From: a virus
Reading direction: 5' to 3' (one strand)
Length of the DNA stretch: 64,000 bases
IMG/VR virus record: IMGVR_UViG_3300028895_000122
Shown: positions 6,749-57,356 of the stretch, piece by piece
Position numbering within the stretch: position 1 is the stretch's first letter
How the letters are laid out: each line of letters begins with the position of its first letter
Translations under genes and position numbers: made by a program
The notes under the pieces: model-generated
The model's database searches: none
The model's input: the letters and a program-made list of their open reading frames with translations, nothing else
Told to the model about the DNA's origin: nothing

Positions 6749-7004
6749 CGTTTACGCTCAAATCTTGAATTGCTCTAGATAATATTTCTGACAAGTCGTG
6801 GAATCTAGGATCATCACCTTTGTCTAAAGTCGTACAGCATTCCGCGATTGCCCACCCTAATGCTTGAATTCTTTCTTGTTCTATATAATTTACTAATTTA
6901 TAGTATGCTGTTGTGGTTGGGTAAATACCATGCTCATCAGGGTGATCAAGCATTTCGCTAACGATATCACATACTACTTGTCTGTCTTTATCCATTCTAT
7001 ACAC
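6738..7004 (-). CDS. hypothetical small protein (between polymerase halves)
   Basis: Packed ORF. No motif recognised. Confidence 0.3.
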   Translation of the reverse strand: MYRMDKDRQVVCDIVSEMLDHPDEHGIYPTTTAYYKLVNYIEQERIQALGWAIAECCTTLDKGDDPRFHDLSEILSRAIQDLSVNDGN

Positions 7005-7951
7005 CTTTCTATAGTTTCTTTTATGTTATTCTTAAATTCTGATTCCCATATCACTAAAGTAGGAATACTTCTTTCTTTGAATAACGCATCAATTTTTTCT
7101 TTATCTTTTTTCCAAATATCTTCGGCAAGTAAATCTGCCTGACTATGATAATAGTTTACACTATATTTCTCTGGATTGCAATGCCAATAATCACCATTAA
7201 ACTCTATTGCTCGTCCTTTATGTACAATATCGTAGAAATTTGGTTTATTGTTAGCATACACACAATATTGTTTGGTATTGGCAGAATATTCTAAAGTTTC
7301 TCCTAAATTTAATTCTATTTGTTTAATAAACTCTAATTCTAAATCACTTACATAACCGCCAGTATTGTATTCACTTCGTATTTGCACGGCTTCTTCTACT
7401 GAACAATTATGTCTATTTTGGATTGAATCTATTGTATGTGATTTACCCTTGCATATTTCTATATATTTTTGGTTACCTTCTTCTACACCATATTTTTCAA
7501 TAAAGTATTCTTTAGTGTTAGTATATGCTTGTCTATCACAATAGGCAATCCATCTTTGCGATCCTTCTTCCTCTCCGTATTTAGATATTAAATTCTCTAA
7601 CGTAACAGCACGAGAACGGTTAAATTCCTTAAATTCTTCTTCGCTCCAACCATATCGTTCTTTTTTATATTCGTACGAGTTCGACTTGCGTTGTTTTTCG
7701 ACATAGTTTTGCCATGCTTTTTCACCTTCTACTTTTCCGTATTTCTCGACGAGATTATCTCGTGTTATCGCTGTTTTCTTTGCTAATTCCGCATCAACTA
7801 ACTGAGCATTTGGATATGCTTGTTTATATTCTGTTCCATTCTTAAACTTTCCTGTACACTTGTAAGCAAAGTGAGTCCATTGTAATCTTGGTGCTGTAAA
7901 ACCACATTCTAAACATTTTGGCATTATGGTGCTTCTCCTATCCGCATACAA
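6974..7951 (-). CDS. putative homing/selfish endonuclease: Zn-finger N-terminus, three EKYG.EEG repeats, C-terminal Vsr/DUF559-like PD-(D/E)XK domain
   Basis: An N-terminal CLECG...KC cysteine cluster. Repeats LVEKYGKVEGEKAW, LISKYGEEEGSQRW and FIEKYGVEEGNQKY. The C-terminal GRAIEFNGDYWH...PTLVIWESEF is similar to the Vsr/DUF559 ...RFWEHE end. It lies inside the split-polymerase locus. Confidence 0.5.
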   Translation of the reverse strand: MYADRRSTIMPKCLECGFTAPRLQWTHFAYKCTGKFKNGTEYKQAYPNAQLVDAELAKKTAITRDNLVEKYGKVEGEKAWQNYVEKQRKSNSYEYKKERYGWSEEEFKEFNRSRAVTLENLISKYGEEEGSQRWIAYCDRQAYTNTKEYFIEKYGVEEGNQKYIEICKGKSHTIDSIQNRHNCSVEEAVQIRSEYNTGGYVSDLELEFIKQIELNLGETLEYSANTKQYCVYANNKPNFYDIVHKGRAIEFNGDYWHCNPEKYSVNYYHSQADLLAEDIWKKDKEKIDALFKERSIPTLVIWESEFKNNIKETIERCIEWIKTDK

Positions 7952-7986: not shown

Positions 7987-8135
7987 ATGCGAATTAAAGA
8001 AGTCACAAAAAAGGTTGTTAAAGATGACGCAGACTATAACAATGATGTTATGTCTGGCCATCAAAAGCCTATTCCCGAACTTACACCTGCTCAAGTCAAA
8101 AAAGCAAAAGCCCTCAAAAAGATTAAGAATCTATA
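7987..8135 (+). CDS. possible small Lys-rich ORF (49 aa), opposite strand
   Basis: ATG..TAG open frame MRIKEVTKKVVKDDADYNNDVMSGHQKPIPELTPAQVKKAKALKKIKNL in the gap between the HEG-like gene and the polymerase N-fragment. It overlaps the polymerase stop and has no clear SD. Confidence 0.15.
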
Positions 8136-10315
8136 GAGATAATTAAGTCATCATCCTGCAATTCTGTAGGTTTAACTTCTATTGTAAATCCGTCTCTATC
8201 AACTATTAAACTATGATCCTCTGTAACGGTTATAGAACTACCATCTTCCATTGTGACCTTGTATAGTTGTTTGGATGTTTTATGACGCATCACATAGTTG
8301 ATCGCTCCAAATACAGCCTCATCTTCATGAGCATTATAACCAAGCACCTTTAGATCATGTTGTGCTTCTGTGGGTATGGCATATTCTTTACCGCCATCTT
8401 GCTCTACCTTGTATTGAATCTGATTGTATAAATCTTCTATGGATATGTTGCCTTTGTTGGTGTTTAATGTAGTATCGCCTGTAACTGAGTCGCCGTATAT
8501 GATGCATTCACCAACATGATCATATTCTCCTGTTAAACATTGATTAACATAAGCGTCCATGTGTTTAGCAATTGCTCGCCCTGTTAACGTTGTGCTTTGT
8601 CCTATCCTAGGGTCAAAAAATCTACAATGTGGGTTTAGGATAGCACCATATAAAGAGTTAAGGTTAATCTTTTTAACGAGTTGTCGTTTATCCCAGAAAG
8701 CAATTTCTTCTTTATCGCTTGCTGTTTTTTTCTTTGCTTGTAATTCTTTACGTTCGGCATACCAACGTTCTAGTAACCCTGGAACAACACCTTTCTTTTC
8801 GTATGTAAAGATGGTACCATTTGCACTTATACACCAATTGGTATTCTCGTTAAATATATGGTCATGTAACTCTTTTGCAGTATGTACGCTTTCTTCGCCG
8901 TTAACCCAATCGACAGTAATTTCTGTATCTGTTCTGCGATCCATAACTGCTGTATATTCCAATGTACCAAACAATCCTTCCCAGGCTGCTGCAAACGAAG
9001 CACCTACATATTTCTTACCATTTCTAAACGTCGGCTCTTGTTTCTTTTTAATGTAGTTGTTGGTCATTATAGGACGTAGTTGTCCTACAATAGTTTCATT
9101 AGCCATGTTCAATGCACGAATAACAGATGGATACAGTGAGTTCAAGTCAACCGACCCAATCCATTTATGTACACCTTTTTTAGGGTATGCTACATAAGCA
9201 CCTGCTGCTTGTGTATCTTCTTTGTCGTGGCGTTTACGATCTGGTACTACCATTCCGCGTTCATGTGCTTCGTTGATGATGGCTTGCTCTGTTACCGCCA
9301 CCGCGCCCATTGTTGTAGGAAGCAATACAGTATTAGCATGAGCTAGTTCGTTTGCTAAATCAAGGAACTTGAGTTTCTCATCCAGTTTAGCAAGTAACGC
9401 AACGTCCTGCCTGTTATAGTCAATAAACGTGTAAAAGTCTTGGTTGTATAGTTGGTCAAGTGTGCCTTCATATTCTACCTTACGCTCGCCAAGTTCATAT
9501 TCACCAATTGCATCTAAGCTATAAGAATGCATTTCGTGATATGTATATTTTCTGTACAGTTGCATATAATCCATATGAACCCTACCAACTGTATCATATG
9601 TAATATGTTCTGCACCAAACCGTTCAAATGTACGTTTCTTAGGTAACATACCCCACAAACATAATCTACGAGTGTCGTCTTTACTTAATACTCGTGTAAT
9701 ACGATTTACTGTGTATGGTATATCAAAGCCTTCGCTGTTCCAGCCGCTATACACGTCGGCGTCTTCGATTATATCCAAAAAGGTTAATAACATATCACGT
9801 TCGTGTTCGAAGATAAATGTATTAGGAAACTCTTTACACATTTCTTGTGCTTCTTCGACTGATAATGTTTTTGGCGGCACCGCCAATGTAATAAGACTTT
9901 CCATCCAATCTAAATATACTGTGATAGCAGTAATCTTATTAAACGGATCGTCTGTTGGTGCAAAACCTTTTTCTTGGTGGAAGTCCACCTCGATATCAAA
10001 AAACGCTGTTTGTAGTTTGGGTGAGTCAACATCTTTATAGTTTGTTTCTATACACCTAAAGATAGGATTAATATCAGATTCAAACAATTGTTGACCTGAA
10101 TGCATTTTAATTTCTTTTTGGAACTCTTTGCCAGTTCTACATGAAAACTTCGATACTGGTGTTCCATAAAGACTTATGTATTTCCCTTTTGCTGATGGGT
10201 AATAAAATACATAGTCGGCAGGATATTCTTTGAATAATCTCTGCCCATCTTTTGATCTTTCTACAATTTTAATACGATCATGTTCACGATCGTGTATAGC
10301 GTCAACATAACTCAT
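8123..10315 (-). CDS. 43: DNA polymerase (family B, gp43) N-terminal fragment carrying an N-intein
   Basis: FFDIEV (Exo I), DLNSLYPS (motif A) and KINLNSLYG (motif B) are present. The extein ends ECIIYGD. A 121-aa SVTGDTTL...VTEDHSLIV... tail follows, then stop. Confidence 0.85.
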   Translation of the reverse strand: MSYVDAIHDREHDRIKIVERSKDGQRLFKEYPADYVFYYPSAKGKYISLYGTPVSKFSCRTGKEFQKEIKMHSGQQLFESDINPIFRCIETNYKDVDSPKLQTAFFDIEVDFHQEKGFAPTDDPFNKITAITVYLDWMESLITLAVPPKTLSVEEAQEMCKEFPNTFIFEHERDMLLTFLDIIEDADVYSGWNSEGFDIPYTVNRITRVLSKDDTRRLCLWGMLPKKRTFERFGAEHITYDTVGRVHMDYMQLYRKYTYHEMHSYSLDAIGEYELGERKVEYEGTLDQLYNQDFYTFIDYNRQDVALLAKLDEKLKFLDLANELAHANTVLLPTTMGAVAVTEQAIINEAHERGMVVPDRKRHDKEDTQAAGAYVAYPKKGVHKWIGSVDLNSLYPSVIRALNMANETIVGQLRPIMTNNYIKKKQEPTFRNGKKYVGASFAAAWEGLFGTLEYTAVMDRRTDTEITVDWVNGEESVHTAKELHDHIFNENTNWCISANGTIFTYEKKGVVPGLLERWYAERKELQAKKKTASDKEEIAFWDKRQLVKKINLNSLYGAILNPHCRFFDPRIGQSTTLTGRAIAKHMDAYVNQCLTGEYDHVGECIIYGDSVTGDTTLNTNKGNISIEDLYNQIQYKVEQDGGKEYAIPTEAQHDLKVLGYNAHEDEAVFGAINYVMRHKTSKQLYKVTMEDGSSITVTEDHSLIVDRDGFTIEVKPTELQDDDLIISIDS
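8126..8488 (-). other. split-intein N-fragment (121 aa) at the C-terminus of the polymerase N-fragment
   Basis: Block A SVTGDTTL follows YGD directly. Block B is TxxH (SSITVTEDHSLIV). Confidence 0.7.
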
Positions 10316-16717: not shown

Positions 16718-17431
16718 TTATATTTCCTCATTAATTATGTTGTATGTTTTCTTTAAAAGTCCGGGCGCACATATATTAAAAATAGTTTCTATGCCAGGAT
16801 CATTATAGTCAAAGAAAAAATGTTCTTGACAGTATTTACTTGGAAAATTTAACCAACGTTTAAAAGTTCGACATGGTACAACTGTATCGTGATAAATCTT
16901 TAAAAATTGTTTTAGTTTTTGTTTGTGATCGTTTGTTACAATACACGTTTTTAAATAAGTTCTATACTTGTAATCAGAATTTTTTCTAACCAATGAACCC
17001 GAATCGGAATTAATCTTTATTTCTGTTATGCCGGGATCTACTATACCAGGCAATGTTAATAATTCTTCTAAAAACGGTATATTATTCGAATAACAATAAA
17101 AACGGTGTGTTGTAAGAACCAACCGATATTTAAGATCCTGTTCATTGAAGAAGTTAATAAATGAATTTAAGTTTTCTTTTGTGATATCGGTAATCGGTTC
17201 TCTATGCATTGAGCCAACCATACCAAGTGAACGCGGTACATAAAACCCCGAACGTTTATATCTTTCTTTAATTCGTAAGCGTTCATCTAATCCGACACTG
17301 GTTAATCCTCGTACAGAATTAACTTCTTGAAGATACCCACATGCAGACCATTGATACTCATTAAAGAATAGTTTATTGCTTTTCTTTATACTATAATTTA
17401 GGTTTGAATTGGTCCAAGACAATGTATCCAT
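16718..17431 (-). CDS. hypothetical protein
   Basis: Packed ORF. No motif recognised. Confidence 0.4.
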   Translation of the reverse strand: MDTLSWTNSNLNYSIKKSNKLFFNEYQWSACGYLQEVNSVRGLTSVGLDERLRIKERYKRSGFYVPRSLGMVGSMHREPITDITKENLNSFINFFNEQDLKYRLVLTTHRFYCYSNNIPFLEELLTLPGIVDPGITEIKINSDSGSLVRKNSDYKYRTYLKTCIVTNDHKQKLKQFLKIYHDTVVPCRTFKRWLNFPSKYCQEHFFFDYNDPGIETIFNICAPGLLKKTYNIINEEI

Positions 17432-19688
17432 CGTCGCTTATTGTGCCCTCGGGCATTTTCTCCGTTGTTAATTTATTATTCTGTTCGAAGATTATTTCTT
17501 CACCATCTAAAAGAACTGTTAATGTTGTGTCTTTAAGATTTTCAAATAATATCTTTTTACTTAGCGGTACTTTAAGTAATTCATTGATTTTTCTTGATAT
17601 AGGTCTAGCACCCATTTTGCTATCATAACCAACATCTGCAAGAAAATCAATTACAGCTTCAGTAACATTAATTTTAATATTTTTATTTTTAAGTTGTTCT
17701 TTAAGATCTATAATAAACTTATTAACAACCTTCTTAATACTTAGCTCATCTAATTTGTTGAACTTAACAATCGCATCTAATCTATTACGCAATTCAGGTT
17801 TGAAGAACTCTTTAACAGCTTTATCTTCTTCTCCAGACTTTTCTAAGTCTTGCCCAAAGCCGATGTTAAAGTTTTCGTTATCTCTTGCACCTAAGTTACT
17901 TGTTAATAAAATAATGCAGTTCTTTATATTTACTGTTTTTCCTGAAGAACTTGTAATATGTCCTTCGTCGAGCATCTGTAACATAATGTTAGACACATCT
18001 GGATGAGCCTTTTCAATTTCATCAAACAATAAGATACTATATGGATCTTTAGTAATGTCTTGAATAAGTTTACCACCACCTAAATTACCATCTTCGTATC
18101 CTACATATCCAGGCGGTGCACCAATTAACTGTGACACACTATGTCGTTCTTGATATTCTGACATGTCATAACGTAACAGTTCCATGTCTAGGTTCTTGCT
18201 TAACAATTTAGCAAACTCAGTTTTACCGCAGCCTGTAGGTCCAAGTAATAAGAAGCTAGCAACTGGTTTATTTTCTGTAGTTAATCCACCGAAGCTAACA
18301 TAGATACGATCAAGCATTTCATCTACTGCGTCATCTTGACCGTAAAGTTTCTCTTTGATGTTGGCTCCTAAGTCGCGCACCTTATTACAATCTTCATTTT
18401 TAAGACGTTCAACAGGAACAGTAGTAATCTTCTCTGCTTCTCTGAAAATAAGGTCTGGTGTAATCTCAACATCCTTATTATCTTTAGCACGTTGTTTAGC
18501 ACATGCCGCATCTAATAGATCGATTGATTTATCTGGATTCTGTCTATCGTGGATATAACGTGTTGCTAAGTCCACCGCAGTAATACAGGCCTCTTTATCG
18601 ATTCGAACGCTGTGGAATTCTTCGAGTCGACTAGAAAGTCCGTTTAGGATTTTGATAGTTGTATCATGATCTGGCTCGTCGATATTGAGTTTATAGAATC
18701 GACGCATTAATGCACGATCCTGTTCAAATGTTTCGTAAAACTCTTCCCAGGTAGTTGAAGCAATTACTTTAAGTTTGCCGCGTGTAATAGCAGGCTTTAA
18801 CATGTTGGCCATATCTAAGTTGCCATTGCTACCAGCACCAGCACCTGACATAGTGTGTGCTTCGTCGATGAACAAGATACCGTTATTAAGTGTTTCCAAT
18901 GCTTTAATAACTTCTTGGAACTTTTCTTCAAACTCACCACGATACTTCGAACCAGCTAATAAAGATCCAACTTCCAATGACCATACTGTATGTCCTTTAA
19001 GAAACTCAGGAACATCACCTTCGGCTATTTCCTGTGCAAGGCCTTCTACGATTGCTGTTTTACCAACGCCAGGGTCACCTACCATTAGTACATTTGATTT
19101 AAACTTCTTAGCAAGAATTTCAACCGCGTCTTGAATTTCGTTTGCACGACCAATCAATGGTTCGAACTTACCTTCTTCTGCTAATTCGGTTAAGTTAGTA
19201 CAGTGCTCATACAGAATGTCTTCCGCTTGGTCGTTGTTTAATGTTACTTTAGCGCCTTCTTTGTAACTCTTGTTCCAGTGCTCAACAAATGAATCTTTAT
19301 CGACACCGTGTTTCAATAAGAAGTAAGATGCATGACTATTTGTTTCTGCAGAAATACTTAGGTAAAGATCAATGGTTGTAATTTGTTTACGTCCAGAGAA
19401 AAGAACTTGTGTTCCTGCTCTATTGAATATGCGTTCTAATGCATTTGTACGTTTTGGTGTGTCTTTGTATTGTGGGTTAACAATATTTTTAAGATTGACT
19501 AAATATCCTTCGAGTTCTGAATCAAATAAATCAGTATCAACTCCGTAGTTCTTTAATACTTCATCAAATGGTTCGAATCGAATAAGTGCTAACAGTAAAT
19601 GTTCTGTTAATACATATTCATGTTTCTTCTGTTTTGCAATGTGAATTGCATATTCTGTAATTTGTTCAATCTCTGGATTTACTTGCAT
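17391..19688 (-). CDS. ClpA/ClpC-like two-AAA+ domain unfoldase (765 aa)
   Basis: A Clp_N-like [10 protein letters not shown] segment. AAA1 Walker [23 protein letters not shown]2 [16 protein letters not shown]. The length matches ClpA (no ClpB middle domain). Confidence 0.8.
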
Positions 19689-22575: not shown

Positions 22576-24162
22576 CTATGAATAGTTAATGTTTCCTTTA
22601 TTCTTCCAACCCCACGCTAGAACAATAAAAATTAATGTAAAAATAATAACAAACAATGGGTGTCCTAGTAAATCTTTTGAATCCATGCTTGCCATCATAA
22701 GTTGTCCTTTGCCTACAGACTCACCTGTAAACCAAGACTTTATTTGTATTAAAGGATAACCACCTATGTTGTATAATTTTAGTTGGTATGTTAGTAGTTC
22801 AATTTTATCACCTAATATAAATCCAATCATCATTGCTGGTCTACTAAACTTAAATTGTCTCATTGCTAAACCTAACAATGTAAATATTAATAATAAGATT
22901 ATGTTTTCTATTCCGTATGTCCCGAAGCCACTTGTGTAAGTTGCCCATAATATGAATATCAGTAAGAATGGGAAATAGTATTTGTAAGGCACATAAGCAA
23001 TCATTGTAAAGTATCGCATGAAGTACAAACATAATAGTCCTGTTATTAATGTTGCACCTAAAAAGCCAATGCTCAAGCTATTAAAGAATAACTTGTCACC
23101 TAATAGACTTTGTCCTTCTAAAGTTAGTTCGAATCCTACAGCACCAAATAATCCAATTACTATTGCAGCAAATGGTGCTCCTGGAATACCAAACAAAATA
23201 GTAGGAATAAATGAACTAGCCTTTTGTGCATTGTTACTACCTTCCGGTCCAATGACACCTTTAATGTTACCGTTACCAAACTTTTCTTTTGGGTTAGTTG
23301 CTACGGCTTGACCATAGCTTAACCAATCAGACATAGCACCACCTAAGCCTGGCAGGAATCCAATAATAGATCCAATTAATCCTCCACGCATTGATAGCTT
23401 CCATTCTTTAAATGATACTTTAATCCCATCCCAAAGTTGTTGTGTATGCTCACCTAAGTCGCGTCTTTCTGCTAATGCTGTTTTCTTTAGTGCGAGTAAA
23501 ATCTCAGGCATTGCAAACAATCCAGCAATAACAGGAATAAGCGGAATGCCTTTACCTACGCCACTACCAGACAAGAATTCAAAACCCATTGTAAATCGTG
23601 GCTCTGCTGTTACTGGATCAGTTCCAATCATTGCTAAGAACACGCCCAATGATAATGCTACTAAAGAACGTATCCAATATTGATTAGATACAAAGCCGAC
23701 AGTAACAAAAGCAAGGACACACATTGCCCATAATTCTGCTTGTCCTACACCACCTTCTGTTGGCGGCAATATAACAAAGTCATAATAATAAGGTAACAAT
23801 AAGAATACAGCCGAACCCCATATTAAGCCATTTACCGTGCTTGTTGTGATGGCTGCGCTTAATGCATACGTTGCCTTACCTTGTTGTGCTAACGGAAACC
23901 CATCAACCATTGTTGCTGCGGAACTATTAGCACCAGGTATACCTAATAACACAGATGCAAAGGTATCCCCTGTTGTACTTGCTGCGACAACTGCTGTAAT
24001 GAATATAACGGCTAGATAAGGATCAACTGACTTTAACGCAACAATAAAAGGAAACAAGGCTACGAGGCCTGTTGTTGCTCCTGCTGCTGGAATAATGCCA
24101 ATTAATAGTCCATAAACTATTCCTGCGAATAATGCTAAAAATGCGAGTAAATAAAATTCCAT
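22576..24162 (-). CDS. TctA-like (DUF112) multi-pass membrane permease
   Basis: 528 aa with more than 12 hydrophobic helices. Two internally repeated halves carry Gly-rich GIPGA/LPGLGG segments. It lies 9 nt upstream of the TctC-like gene. Confidence 0.5.
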   Translation of the reverse strand: MEFYLLAFLALFAGIVYGLLIGIIPAAGATTGLVALFPFIVALKSVDPYLAVIFITAVVAASTTGDTFASVLLGIPGANSSAATMVDGFPLAQQGKATYALSAAITTSTVNGLIWGSAVFLLLPYYYDFVILPPTEGGVGQAELWAMCVLAFVTVGFVSNQYWIRSLVALSLGVFLAMIGTDPVTAEPRFTMGFEFLSGSGVGKGIPLIPVIAGLFAMPEILLALKKTALAERRDLGEHTQQLWDGIKVSFKEWKLSMRGGLIGSIIGFLPGLGGAMSDWLSYGQAVATNPKEKFGNGNIKGVIGPEGSNNAQKASSFIPTILFGIPGAPFAAIVIGLFGAVGFELTLEGQSLLGDKLFFNSLSIGFLGATLITGLLCLYFMRYFTMIAYVPYKYYFPFLLIFILWATYTSGFGTYGIENIILLLIFTLLGLAMRQFKFSRPAMMIGFILGDKIELLTYQLKLYNIGGYPLIQIKSWFTGESVGKGQLMMASMDSKDLLGHPLFVIIFTLIFIVLAWGWKNKGNINYS

Positions 24163-31366: not shown

Positions 31367-31675
31367 TTATTCCTCTGATAATTTGTGTGCTAATAATTTT
31401 TGTTCCCACTCTTTCTTCCATTCGGGATTAATTTTGTTATACATTGTATCTAATAGATATTTTAACATAAAAACTTCTTTCTGGTATGTATTATGGACAT
31501 ATCCATCCGTGTCTGTTGAAAAGGCATTAATAGTTATGTAGTGTAGCTTTTTCATAACCTCGTGGTATGCTTCGGTACGTTCCTCGTCTGGGAACAATGG
31601 TACTGCTCGTTTAATCATGTTTTGTCCATTCTGGTTGATTACGTTTTGTCCACTTGAACAAATGTTTCTTTTCAC
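31367..31675 (-). CDS. hypothetical protein
   Basis: Packed ORF. Confidence 0.35.
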   Translation of the reverse strand: MKRNICSSGQNVINQNGQNMIKRAVPLFPDEERTEAYHEVMKKLHYITINAFSTDTDGYVHNTYQKEVFMLKYLLDTMYNKINPEWKKEWEQKLLAHKLSEE

Positions 31676-32078
31676 CTAAGTAATACTTTCGGTATGCAAT
31701 GATAGCATCGTCATCTCTGTATTCGTCTGGCATTGCTTGTGCAAATGGTGTTAACCCGTTATCTTCTAATTTAGGGTCCGGGAGGGTTTCTATCATATCC
31801 CAGGATTTATGATTGCGAGTATGATTGAATCGGAATTGCCATTCTTTATGTAATGCTTCTGTTAAGTCTCGAAGGTAATTGTAATTAGATTGAGATTCTC
31901 TAGTCCAAATTGTGCATGGATGATTTTTATGTGTTAGCCTATAACCAGCATCGTAACCAGCAAGCCTGACAGTAGCAGAGAGCATCTGGGCATGTTCTAC
32001 AATCATTTTAACAACATGTTTGTCGCCGTATGATTGCACGTTTTTATTAATATCAGAATCTAATAGAAATATATTCAT
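31611..32078 (-). CDS. hypothetical protein
   Basis: Trimmed to the ATG at 32078 (MNIFLLDSD...), which has AGGAGG SD 6 nt upstream. Confidence 0.4.
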   Translation of the reverse strand: MNIFLLDSDINKNVQSYGDKHVVKMIVEHAQMLSATVRLAGYDAGYRLTHKNHPCTIWTRESQSNYNYLRDLTEALHKEWQFRFNHTRNHKSWDMIETLPDPKLEDNGLTPFAQAMPDEYRDDDAIIAYRKYYLGEKKHLFKWTKRNQPEWTKHD

Positions 32079-32145
32079 AAAAAACCTCCTAACTGATTGT
32101 ATTATAGCAAATACCAGAAAGGAGGTCAATGAAATTTCTTTGAAA

Positions 32146-32439
32146 TTATTCTAAAGTTTCGCCCGGGTTTAATTGTTGTAATTGGTCAGCGCCTTGTGTT
32201 TTAACTAATACTGGTTGAGGACCAGTATATGAACGTATCCATCCGTCAACCTCGCCCGAAGAATCATGTGTATAACGTTTAGTCATCCATCCTAGTTCTT
32301 CTAAATCACCCATTGTGTAAATTGATTGATCGGCAACATATGATGCATTATAAATTACTGGCATATCACCATTTTTAATTTGTTTTGCTAGTTGGTCTAA
32401 GCGAGGATCAGTATCCTCATTGAATTCGAATAATCTCAT
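32146..32439 (-). CDS. hypothetical protein
   Basis: Packed ORF. Confidence 0.4.
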   Translation of the reverse strand: MRLFEFNEDTDPRLDQLAKQIKNGDMPVIYNASYVADQSIYTMGDLEELGWMTKRYTHDSSGEVDGWIRSYTGPQPVLVKTQGADQLQQLNPGETLE

Positions 32440-32450
32440 AAAACTATTTA

Positions 32451-32876
32451 TTAAAAAATAATTTCGTTTTGTGTACCGACATTGTGTAAAGAACCATCTA
32501 GAATCTTTTGTTTATGGTCGGCGTGTGTAGCTTCAGAGAATGTATCATCGCTTTGTGGTTCATCACTTATTAGTAGTATGTCGTTATTGTCGACTCTGCG
32601 TAGTACCATTTCTTCACCATTGATATCAACGGTAATACCACGTGTCCATCTACCATGTTTAACAAGAATATATTCACCAACCTGTACATCAGTTTGGTCA
32701 TCACCTACTGCATATACTTCTGCCCAACGTGGACGAATACCTTGTGTTTTGGCATCGTCTTTAGGAAGTAAAATCCCACCAGATGTTTTACGTTCACCAA
32801 ACTCCATATCCTTTACTAGAATATGATCATGTAATGGTTTAAGACCTTTGATATTGTATTTTGTGATGGTTGACAT
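32451..32876 (-). CDS. GroES-like co-chaperonin (gp31 analogue)
   Basis: LKPLHDHILVKDMEFGERKTSGGILLP...AEVYAVGDD follows the GroES pattern (RPLHDRVIVK...SAGGIVL...VLAVG). The mobile-loop region is extended. Confidence 0.6.
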   Translation of the reverse strand: MSTITKYNIKGLKPLHDHILVKDMEFGERKTSGGILLPKDDAKTQGIRPRWAEVYAVGDDQTDVQVGEYILVKHGRWTRGITVDINGEEMVLRRVDNNDILLISDEPQSDDTFSEATHADHKQKILDGSLHNVGTQNEIIF

Positions 32877-33173
32877 TTATTCTCCTTTTATGATAAACAA
32901 TTTTTGGAATTTTGCAATTTTAAAAATTTCCATAATATCAGATGATGCATTTATAATTTTTACTTTATCTTTTGATATTTCTCTAATTCGTAATAACATA
33001 CCCAATGCAGAGCTATCAATATATTTTGTACCTCTTAGATCAACAATATAACTCTTTACATTCGAATCGATATCTTAATATGATTTCATTATCGGCTCGT
33101 GACACGAAAAATCAAACGTCTCTGGTGGATATATTGTAACTGTAGTTTCGGTTTCATCTATTCTAGCAGTCAT
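32877..33173 (-). pseudogene. STAS-domain (anti-sigma-factor antagonist, SpoIIAA-like) gene interrupted by one in-frame TAA
   Basis: MTARIDETETTVTIYPPETFDFSCHEPIMKSY, then TAA at 33075..33077, then DIDSNVKSYIVDLRGTKYIDSSALGMLLRIREISKDKVKIINASSDIMEIFKIAKFQKLF in the same frame. The DLxGxxYIDSSGLGxLL core is STAS-typical. Absent from the ORF track because each half is under 60 aa. Confidence 0.45.
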
Positions 33174-33330
33174 TTATCTCTTTCCTAATGTTTCTTTTAG
33201 CTTCTCTACGATCAGCACGTTTACGGTCGTGGTGGTTAATTTCTACTTCCCACCAGTTGCTATATCCTTTGGGAGGATGACAATCTGTCTTAGATGGAAA
33301 CTTAACAGGTTTACGACCCAATGGTTGCAT
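33163..33330 (-). CDS. small basic protein (55 aa), missed by cutoff
   Basis: ATG overlaps the stop of 33330..33836 (TAATG). Protein MQPLGRKPVKFPSKTDCHPPKGYSNWWEVEINHHDRKRADREAKRNIRKEINDC. Confidence 0.3.
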   Translation of the reverse strand: MQPLGRKPVKFPSKTDCHPPKGYSNWWEVEINHHDRKRADRREAKRNIRKEINDC

Positions 33331-55243: not shown

Positions 55244-56295
55244 TCCAAACGTTTGATCTGTTTCAACAAAAATGCTTTCCAGTCTGGTTCTTCATTCTTG
55301 CTGTAATACATCATAGCAAGTGAGAACTCATAACCTTCTAATTCATTCTGACCTTTAATAGCAAACTCTTTACGGTCTAAATGCTTGTTAGCATTATAAT
55401 ACTCTGTAACAGAATTTACAATTAAGTTGGCTTTATGAATTACCTTATGCTGTAACTCTTGCATTTCTTTCAACACTTCAGGCTGATCAGCAATTAACGC
55501 AAAAACATCATCAGCTTCATCTTTCAACACTAATTCAATAAATGCATTAGGCTGGTTAACAAAGTCTTTAGCACGGTGACGTTCCAAATACCATGCACAC
55601 TTTTCTTTCCACCAGTTACCTTGACGATCAATTACAACATAACCTTCGACGTTAGTTAAAGTATCAAGTTCATCCAATTTTATAAGGCTTTCAAAACCAG
55701 TAAAGTATTCTTTTGGAATTGAACCTGGGTACATATACATACCAGTATCACGCTGACGAGCATTTAGCACAATCAAACGTGGTTCTGGATAGTGAAGCAC
55801 AATACGGAACTTTGGATCTGGATGAACCAATTCCATGTTTACAGTATAACCATCACGTTCGCACCACTTAACAAAATCAAACAAATCGTTGTCATTGTAC
55901 AAGATATCCATTGCCATGTTTGCATAATCAGAATGAATAGAAGTTTTAGACTTTAAACGCAAATCACCTTCGGAATCAACATAAGAGCTGATTAAAGAAC
56001 CATCTGCTTTGTTCATTACATACTGTGGATCTTCATATTCGATAAAGTCTACTTCACCTTTGTTAAAAAACTTATGCATCGGACGAGAAGCAATACGCAA
56101 TGGATTACCTTCGCAGTCAATCTGAAACATGATACCACGTGACTCTAATGCATCTGGCAGTAACCATGAGTCTTTATCAGTGAAGTGATAAGAGAATATG
56201 CGATAGCAGTCCTTACCAATTTCCTGATCAGAGTGGTAAAATGGAGTGTCGTCGTTTAACGACAAGTTCATTAAGTTGTTATATAATTCTTTCAT
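55234..56295 (-). CDS. rnlA: RNA ligase 1 (T4 RnlA orthologue)
   Basis: N-terminus MKELYNNLMNLS...YRIFSYHF...SWLLPDALESRGIMF...LRIASRPMHKFFN is near-collinear with T4 Rnl1 MQELFNNLMEL...YRIFSYNY...DWLLPDALECRGIMF...VRIASRPMEKFFN. VMNKADGSL is the KxDG nucleotidyl-lysine motif. Confidence 0.85.
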   Translation of the reverse strand: MKELYNNLMNLSLNDDTPFYHSDQEIGKDCYRIFSYHFTDKDSWLLPDALESRGIMFQIDCEGNPLRIASRPMHKFFNKGEVDFIEYEDPQYVMNKADGSLISSYVDSEGDLRLKSKTSIHSDYANMAMDILYNDNDLFDFVKWCERDGYTVNMELVHPDPKFRIVLHYPEPRLIVLNARQRDTGMYMYPGSIPKEYFTGFESLIKLDELDTLTNVEGYVVIDRQGNWWKEKCAWYLERHRAKDFVNQPNAFIELVLKDEADDVFALIADQPEVLKEMQELQHKVIHKANLIVNSVTEYYNANKHLDRKEFAIKGQNELEGYEFSLAMMYYSKNEEPDWKAFLLKQIKRLEWV

Positions 56296-56464
56296 TGTCT
56301 TCTAAATCCTTTAATAAGATAAACTTCATTACATCACCCTTCACAACATAGTGAGGATGGTACCTTTCCATTTGTTCAGTTAATGTTCCAGCTTGCTCAT
56401 GTTCACCTAATAATTTAAAGGCTTCCTGTTTTGACATTGTAAATATGTTTTCTAAGTTCTTCAT
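56279..56464 (-). CDS. hypothetical small protein
   Basis: Packed ORF. Confidence 0.3.
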   Translation of the reverse strand: MKNLENIFTMSKQEAFKLLGEHEQAGTLTEQMERYHPHYVVKGDVMKFILLKDLEDNERII

Positions 56465-56698
56465 TTATCTTACCATATTTTGTAGAGCACGTTTAACTCT
56501 TGGTAATGCTCTATTATAAATTCTTTTATAGTCGTTCCAATACAAATCTGCATCCCAGGCACTTCTTGGTAACGTGTCGAGGTATCTAGGTTTTGCATAA
56601 CGTTCAGCTATACCTTCAGAAACAACCTTCGCACCTTTGTTGACAGTTTTATAAACCTGGCCGTCAACTATTATAACCTTCTGTATTCGAACTTCCAT
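56465..56698 (-). CDS. hypothetical small protein
   Basis: Packed ORF. Confidence 0.35.
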   Translation of the reverse strand: MEVRIQKVIIVDGQVYKTVNKGAKVVSEGIAERYAKPRYLDTLPRSAWDADLYWNDYKRIYNRALPRVKRALQNMVR

Positions 56699-56965
56699 TT
56701 ATTCCACCAATCTAAGCATTGCTTGATATTGTTCCCACAAGTCTTGCAGCCCTGGGTGTTTTTCGCGCAATGATTCTTCCTTTGCTTTATGTAAGCGAAT
56801 AGCTCGCAGTTCCTTTTTGAGTGCTGCAAACTCGTCATCTAACTCTTCAGTAACTAGCCAGTCATGATCATACGTTTCGGTATCATACGTCCAAGACGTT
56901 ACTTCGTCTTCTTTTTCGTTTCTTAACTTATGAAGTTTTATTTTCATGTATTTCTCAGGTAACAT
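56699..56965 (-). CDS. hypothetical small protein, paralog family A
   Basis: C-terminus KHPGLQDLWEQYQAMLRLVE. Confidence 0.4.
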   Translation of the reverse strand: MLPEKYMKIKLHKLRNEKEDEVTSWTYDTETYDHDWLVTEELDDEFAALKKELRAIRLHKAKEESLREKHPGLQDLWEQYQAMLRLVE

Positions 56966-57143
56966 TTTAATACATCAAAGCCATTCAAATTCTTTGGTCT
57001 TGGGATTGTACTGAGCCTTGCCTTTTTTAATAGCATCCTTCTCTATCTTTTGTCTTCCGACACCTAGGCCAATTACAAAAAACGTGAATGCTGTAAATAA
57101 AAATATAAAAAGCAATATTCCTGCCATTTCGCCACTATTCATT

Positions 57144-57356
57144 TTAAAACTCCACCTTGTTTATAGTTGCATCACGACAGGCTTGACAAGCAACCCATCC
57201 AACTACGCCACCATATTCCAATTCAGGATTAAGGCCATTATTAAACAATAAGCATTCACCGGTGCGAATCAAAGGTGAAGTATCTGTTTTCTTAAACATA
57301 CAAGTTTCACCGCAAGTACCATCTTTCTCAATTTGTATCTCTACAGGAAATATCAT
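57144..57356 (-). CDS. hypothetical small Cys-rich protein
   Basis: CGETC...C...C..C pattern. Confidence 0.35.
   Translation of the reverse strand: MIFPVEIQIEKDGTCGETCMFKKTDTSPLIRTGECLLFNNGLNPELEYGGVVGWVACQACRDATINKVEF

Follow-up and report, generated by a model that had tools for sequence, protein, structure and literature searches.

Does the seemingly empty gap upstream of the GroES-like gene of an uncultured jumbo-type phage hold a gene and, if so, is the stop codon within that gene real, and is it decoded? In the window, by which we mean the whole stretch of 64,000 nucleotides analysed here (IMG/VR record IMGVR_UViG_3300028895_000122), this gap of 453 bp separates the gene for a 141-aa GroES-like co-chaperonin (32451..32876, minus strand; Pfam Cpn10, 47 bits) from that for a conserved 168-aa phage protein (33330..33836, minus strand). 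The original prediction placed in the gap a frame at 32877..33173, broken only by a TAA at 33075..33077, and on retranslation the coordinates and both peptide strings proved exact, and this TAA was the sole break. The gap, described as empty in the ORF track, does contain the frame, but it also contains a 55-aa ORF (33163..33330, minus strand), which had gone unmentioned.

Direct translation of the minus strand at 32877..33173 gave 98 codons with a single internal TAA, the frame reading MTARIDETETTVTIYPPETFDFSCHEPIMKSY as far as this stop and DIDSNVKSYIVDLRGTKYIDSSALGMLLRIREISKDKVKIINASSDIMEIFKIAKFQKLFIIKGE from there to the terminal stop. An ATG (33171..33173) and 31 sense codons form the N-terminal segment (codons 1–32, 33078..33173); the premature TAA is codon 33 (33075..33077; context TAT TAA G), and is followed by the 65 sense codons of the C-terminal segment (codons 34–98, 32880..33074) and by the normal terminal TAA (32877..32879), which abuts the GroES ATG directly (TAAATG). 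The frame has a purine-rich ribosome-binding site upstream, AGGAAAGAG, its start is overlapped by 11 nt by the 55-aa ORF, and the GroES Shine-Dalgarno sequence, read as AAGGAG, lies within its final codons. The first start codons of the C-terminal segment, a TTG and an ATG, are found at codons 57 and 59, 24–26 codons past the premature TAA. A 32-aa N-terminal ORF and a 40-aa C-terminal ORF have been annotated by gene callers. Promoter and terminator scans around the gene gave counts no higher than the shuffled expectation. Directly 3' of the in-frame TAA (33060..33074, minus strand), there are overlapping palindromic hexamers (GATATC, ATCGAT and TTCGAA), probably by chance.

Joined across the stop, the two halves would constitute a full-length single-domain STAS protein, as judged from sequence comparisons and a predicted model, and the original assignment to a SpoIIAA/RsbV-like STAS domain is borne out. 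The joined sequence matched Pfam STAS (PF01740) with 25.5 bits (gathering cutoff of 22.6 bits) over residues 8–93, so the match crosses the premature stop. A search of 5.8 billion proteins yielded 35 collinear single-domain STAS proteins of 99–101 aa, with 97–98% query coverage, the best of which was 48% identical (E = 1.3e-17, 98% query coverage). Taken separately, both halves were recognised by the family profile (26.6 bits for the N-terminal half and 86.0 bits for the C-terminal half), and the alignment places invariant family residues on either side of the stop: F20, F22 and the FDFSCH motif before it, and D53, S54, A56, L57, G58, M59, L60, L61 and F93 after it. The AlphaFold (AF2) model built from the homologue alignment (pLDDT 88.9, pTM 0.81) has the order beta-beta-helix-beta-helix-beta-helix-beta. 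In this model, the N-terminal segment is predicted to form beta1, beta2 and helix 1, the premature stop falls in a loop after helix 1, and the C-terminal segment is predicted to supply beta3, helix 2 with the YIDSSALGMLL motif, beta4, helix 3 and beta5. The top Foldseek match of the predicted model was SpoIIAA (1th8_B, TM 0.87), with RsbV and TM1442 at TM 0.74–0.77, and the family profile also found the SpoIIAA, RsbV and TM1442 PDB chains by sequence (E values of 3e-11 to 3e-5). Ser54 (codon at 33012..33014, minus strand) aligns as the counterpart of the phospho-serines of HsbA (S56) and SpoIIAA, the latter of which we take to be S58. The 32-residue product would lack helix 2 and this serine, so no STAS domain is possible in it. 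No second STAS copy was found in the 64-kb window, no PHROG family corresponded to the protein, and its scores against the NCBIfam models ant_ant_sig and spore_II_AA were below the cutoffs.

The closest homologues are bacterial, and three of them (P0001, P0013 and P0021) are located in chemotaxis clusters. P0001 and P0013 are directly followed by genes with a Response_reg-SpoIIE-HATPase_c_2 architecture, and the contig of P0021 ends before its downstream gene. In a scan of one genome per species, the DSSALGMLL motif was found at no fewer than 600 gammaproteobacterial loci, including Chromatiales, Marinobacter, Pseudomonas, Stutzerimonas and Cellvibrio. The Pseudomonas silvicola locus has the order fliI, fliJ, STAS, receiver-PP2C-kinase, Hpt, which is the hsbA-hsbR-hptB arrangement described in Pseudomonas (PMC6482189; bioRxiv 10.1101/2024.11.25.625174), and D53-S54-S55 of the phage sequence align with D55-S56-S57 of its HsbA-like protein, S56 being the site mutated in HsbA (PMC6482189). 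The HsbA-type locus in Pseudomonas and the S56/S54 alignment therefore identify the phage gene, by sequence, as a gammaproteobacterial anti-sigma-factor antagonist of the HsbA/CrsA type. Pseudomonas HsbA toggles between HsbR, FlgM and HsbD through the phosphorylation of S56, thereby controlling the availability of RpoS and FliA (PMC6482189). A phmmer search with three bacterial partner proteins against the six-frame translation of the 64-kb window identified no receiver-PP2C-kinase partner; a phage copy of the antagonist would be expected to use that of the host.

The stop codon was found to be a property of the phage population. The exact 32-aa truncated product is present on 11 contigs, and the exact GroES of the window on 10. 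The 11 contigs were obtained from at least six samples and through three assembly pipelines (Logan, JGI and ENA), the samples being SRR6963491 (Logan), JGI 3300017990, 3300018065, 3300028840 and 3300029267, and ENA ERZ27256780. The DNA, including the TAA, was 100% identical in SRR6963491, JGI 3300029267, 3300018065 and 3300028840, and ENA ERZ27256780; five sequences, the window among them, were 100% identical over 491 bp including the TAA, and over 2–6 kb the loci were 99.95–100% identical to the window. Apart from a single-nucleotide polymorphism at 33254, the only differences from the window were two mismatches, at 31970 and 31974, near the end of one contig (L005), and the TAA was common to every assembly aligned or compared with the window. 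An artefact of sequencing or assembly, the real phage having a sense codon, would require a difference of only one base, and all the data are short-read metagenome assemblies. However, the same TAA recurs in the 11 contigs, its context, CATATTAAGATATC, is not a homopolymer, and an intact version is absent among approximately 15 billion predicted proteins. Sequencing error is thus essentially excluded, and we consider an artefact of either kind highly improbable. The sampled population is essentially clonal, and is therefore uninformative about constraint (no dN/dS). In the comparison of sense codon and stop in orthologues, which the original prediction had proposed, the phage copies were approximately 100% identical and carried the TAA, and the databases yielded no diverged orthologue, the best match being bacterial and 51% identical.

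The source phage has no near DNA match among GenBank phages. Its clamp loader is 57.6% identical to those of Pseudomonas phage PA5oct and its relatives, and its GroES is approximately 48% identical to those of the 121Q/PBECO4-like phages (Escherichia phages of approximately 350 kb) and Atu_ph07. With the conserved GroES gene as an anchor for the search, relatives were found to share the gene order DNA-polymerase-III fragment, hypothetical protein, GroES and clamp loader, the last either immediately adjacent or separated by a few small genes. The counterpart of the 168-aa gene adjoins GroES on its upstream side, and no insert is present there in Pseudomonas phage Ettore, in two IMG/VR contigs or in metagenomic relatives with GroES proteins 82, 75, 67, 62 and 61% identical to that of the window. 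The closest of these is a 29,224-bp Logan contig (ERR13166146; GroES 82% identical), which leaves no space upstream of GroES for an insert. A profile search for a STAS remnant in the loci of the relatives with 47–53% identical GroES proteins, of Ettore and of the 75% and 67% relatives identified none; for the 61–62% relatives, neither the recorded Pfam annotation nor the small neighbouring ORFs, the two places checked, contained a STAS domain. Two separate small genes in place of the frame, the arrangement that the original prediction had opposed to a single STAS gene, were not seen in the relatives examined. As the insert is missing from all the related phages examined, the 55-aa ORF and the STAS gene form a lineage-specific insert, and the STAS gene sits in dispensable DNA. 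The 55-aa ORF itself scored below the cutoff of every Pfam family and had no PHROG match. On the other side of GroES, between this gene and the clamp loader gene (31367..32439, minus strand), there is a 97-aa ORF, a 172-aa protein of PHROG 624 (DNA-binding protein) and a 102-aa ORF; this interval is empty or occupied by different genes in Ettore and several metagenomic relatives, making it a second variable spot of the module.

Other genes of the window deserve mention in their own right. A ClpA/ClpB-like double AAA+ chaperone of 765 aa (17391..19688, minus strand) is encoded in addition to GroES, and related phages also encode DnaJ, suggesting a phage-borne chaperone set. An intein seems to split or interrupt the 730-aa family B DNA polymerase (8123..10315, minus strand), the end of which matches the intein splicing domain PF14890 (residues 617–726; 34.3 bits, just short of the cutoff of 35.8), and the next ORF (6974..7951, minus strand) may be the continuation of the polymerase. 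A 528-aa TctA large subunit of a tripartite tricarboxylate transporter (22576..24162, minus strand; 291 bits), an unusual host-like membrane transporter for a phage, is followed by a 355-aa ORF in the same frame past a TAG.

The sequence downstream from the stop has no sign of decay. With a leave-one-out profile constructed from the homologues alone, the full sequence scored 108.9 bits (family 124.7 +/- 12.3, minimum 98.9) and the part past the stop scored 78.1 bits, within one standard deviation of the intact members (84.2 +/- 8.0). The N-terminal part, with 19.5 bits against 31.3 +/- 5.0, was the most divergent of the set. The downstream segment contains no second stop and no frameshift, and all family-invariant residues are kept in it. 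The nonsense mutation is therefore either very recent or not fully inactivating; the undecayed segment fits a very young pseudogene and continued translation equally well. A single substitution is sufficient to account for the stop, since the homologues have E, K, Q, S or R, a variable polar position, in the aligned column (CAA, GAA, AAA or TCA to TAA, for example). The gene is not a fresh import, as its GC content (27.9%) and GC3 (19%) are at or below the averages of the phage (36% and 29%, respectively) and its synonymous codon usage is phage-like; the corresponding values for the closest bacterial homologue are 51% GC and 62% GC3. This amelioration towards the composition of the phage, together with the conserved motifs, suggests that the gene was long functional in the phage.

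Two observations speak for loss. In an exhaustive HMMER search of 1.84 billion sequences representing approximately 15 billion proteins, no intact protein was more than 51% identical, and the sole 100% matches were the 32-aa and 40-aa fragments called from the source phage. Furthermore, the only polymorphism within approximately 1 kb of the STAS gene across samples, the G-to-A change (minus strand) at 33254, found in a single sample (JGI 3300017990, locus L034, position 430), is itself a nonsense mutation: it converts a TGG (Trp) codon of the 55-aa ORF into TAG, so in that population both genes of the insert are broken. With respect to constraint, the downstream half is undecayed, one sample has a nonsense SNP in the 55-aa ORF, and relatives lack the insert. 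We conclude that the STAS gene is probably a host-derived accessory gene that a nonsense mutation has recently turned into a pseudogene. Of the three explanations originally offered, a recent pseudogene is thus the one favoured, sequencing error has been set aside, and read-through is left without support.

If the TAA were read through, by an ochre suppressor tRNA of the phage or host or by leaky termination, a full-length HsbA-like protein would be produced, perhaps deliberately at a low level. The part past the stop is as conserved as in intact family members, and the boundaries of the gene are intact (the ribosome-binding site, the 11-nt overlap upstream and the stop abutting the GroES ATG). 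Jumbo phages frequently carry sets of tRNAs, and the ARAGORN scan, which covered 64 kb of a probably much larger genome (the longest contig of the source phage is 109 kb and PA5oct-like relatives have genomes of approximately 287 kb), found no tRNA in the window. However, TAA ends 71 of the 114 ORFs of the window and is therefore the normal terminator here, so efficient ochre suppression would lengthen most proteins of the phage. No other gene with an in-frame stop was found in the window. The RNA around the stop has no stable structure (MFE of -13.8 kcal/mol versus a shuffle mean of -16.2; z = +0.92). To our knowledge, the stop-codon reassignments described for phages concern TAG and TGA, and UAA is the most efficient bacterial terminator. 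TAA reassignment or suppression was rejected for the window on the basis of stop usage, the lack of tRNAs and the lack of other interrupted genes, and read-through of the STAS gene appears unlikely. The only other stretch of the window in which segments in one frame are separated by single stops (56281..57160) proved to be a head-to-tail series of four small genes (56279..57142, minus strand), encoding 55, 88, 77 and 61 aa; each has its own ATG at, or a few codons from, the previous stop, so this is not an interrupted gene.

A more specific version of this idea has the TAA decoded, either through conditional read-through or by an ochre suppressor tRNA whose gene lies in another part of the jumbo phage genome, yielding small, controlled amounts of an HsbA mimic that would hijack the host HsbR/FlgM switch over RpoS, FliA, motility and biofilm. 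If true, the phage would have a take-over factor controlled through suppression of a stop codon, but we consider this version slightly less likely still than read-through in general. It is more likely that HsbA-like decoys are in use in this clade of phages, with an intact copy in a sister phage, and that the copy in the window is a fresh loss.

The fragments may also have roles of their own, the 32-aa peptide or a C-terminal fragment of 40–42 aa (from the TTG or ATG; 32877..33005) acting as micro-proteins, or the remnant being kept as a 5' leader carrying the GroES ribosome-binding site. The annotation of both ORFs by gene callers and the position of the GroES Shine-Dalgarno sequence inside the last STAS codons are consistent with this. 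However, neither fragment forms a STAS fold in the predicted model, the 32-aa peptide being devoid of helix 2 and the serine, and the 40-aa piece starting halfway through helix 2; no convincing ribosome-binding site precedes the internal ATG, and relatives express GroES without such a leader. Such roles are doubtful, and a little more so than a decoded stop. Independent translation of the C-terminal half was rejected, as this half lacks a ribosome-binding site and its first 24 codons include no start codon. Bypassing of the T4 gene 60 type could be imagined between the TAT at codon 32 (take-off) and the in-frame TAT at codon 42 (landing), both of which follow Lys-Ser (KSY...KSY): the matching codons are 30 nt apart and the stop comes right after the first. 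However, the product would lose the whole connection between helix 1 and strand 3, which has the same length in every homologue, the take-off site has no hairpin, and a three-residue repeat could easily occur by chance in an AT-rich gene. This bypass was rejected on structural grounds and is the least probable of the readings considered.

Returning to the loss of an accessory gene, the following history may be proposed. An ancestor of the present jumbo phage, which is distantly related to Pseudomonas phage PA5oct, would have gained a gammaproteobacterial STAS antagonist of the HsbA/CrsA type, which would have been placed in a two-gene insert between the conserved 168-aa gene and GroES, and would have resided in the phage for long enough to adopt its base composition. 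By homology, the intact protein was probably a mimic or decoy of the host antagonist, engaging a host HsbR/CrsR-type protein or FlgM, and such a decoy would shift the availability of sigma factors (RpoS and FliA) during infection. A single base change would then have made codon 33 a TAA, the likeliest ancestral codons being CAA, GAA, AAA and TCA. Translation would now end after 32 residues, at beta1-beta2-helix 1, giving a product with neither the phospho-serine helix nor a STAS domain, the remainder having no usable start codon. The TAA allele appears to have been fixed in the nearly clonal population sampled, presumably too recently for decay downstream.

Phage-encoded antagonists of this kind had been described as uncommon, which is consistent with the absence of a PHROG family, the lack of a significant tblastn match in 50,697 phage genomes and the finding of a single locus in IMG/VR; yet the closest relative has an intact one. 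A search for a sense-codon orthologue in IMG/VR was negative, and a scan of JGI metagenomes yielded only distant relatives without STAS. The contig ERR13166146 carries an intact 101-aa gene with Pfam STAS matches, directly upstream of the clamp loader gene and four genes downstream of GroES. It thus belongs to the same replication/chaperone module as the copy in the window, but differs from it in being intact and at a different position, and it is probably not a simple orthologue, because no protein among those searched is more than 51% identical to the window protein. This intact copy marks STAS antagonists as accessory genes of this group of phages. The sole STAS locus found in IMG/VR (L012, 1298..1681; IMGVR_UViG_3300028895_000039) encodes an intact 127-aa protein with an IDSSALGML motif, approximately 1 kb upstream of the terminase, portal and capsid genes of an unrelated small tailed phage. 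Both these genes are intact, whereas the copy in the window is broken. Phage DLP4 has also been reported to have a STAS structural homologue (PMC6469090).

For annotation, the seemingly empty gap upstream of GroES contains a small ORF and an HsbA-like gene that is probably dead, with a stop codon that is real. What is new here is a broken phage-borne member of a known protein family, and the idea of recoding is unsupported. The locus appears to be a clear-cut case of a gene that was gained within an accessory insert of a phage and lost again very recently. It also provides a lead, namely that uncultured jumbo phages of a clade related to PA5oct may have picked up partner-switch antagonists of the HsbA/CrsA type, with one member still intact. 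In gammaproteobacteria, this partner switch governs motility and the formation of biofilms, as well as the availability of RpoS and FliA. Descriptions of phage mimics of STAS antagonists are very few, and such mimics could be a simple route to reprogramming sigma-factor use in the host; a repaired version of the window gene, or the gene of the sister phage, would be a direct reagent for this idea.

The locus can finally be set against three known systems. It resembles recoded phages, in which TAG or TGA is reassigned, in having an in-frame stop within an otherwise conserved phage gene. Unlike the recoded phages with suppressor tRNAs, however, it has just one TAA, in a single gene, the main terminator of the window is TAA, and no tRNA is encoded there. 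With SpoIIAA, RsbV and TM1442, the protein shares only 12–21% sequence identity and, unlike them, it comes from the HsbA-type lineage of Gram-negative bacteria, but the predicted fold is the same and the serine is at the N terminus of helix 2. The closest likeness is with HsbA (Pseudomonas) and CrsA (Shewanella), single-domain STAS antagonists whose partners are the receiver-PP2C-kinase proteins HsbR and CrsR. The gene in the window differs from these in being phage-encoded and strongly AT-adapted, with a premature TAA and the most divergent N-terminal third of the set. Nevertheless, like HsbA and CrsA, the phage frame corresponds to one STAS domain of approximately 100 aa that is collinear over its full length. 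The phage protein is 35–49% identical to the genomic members of the motif family, and 40% identical to the Pseudomonas silvicola protein of the fliJ-hsbA-hsbR-hptB locus, and it shares with them the FDF(S/G)xH and Y(I/L)DSSALGMLL motifs, with the phospho-serine position of HsbA, S56, corresponding to S54 in the phage.
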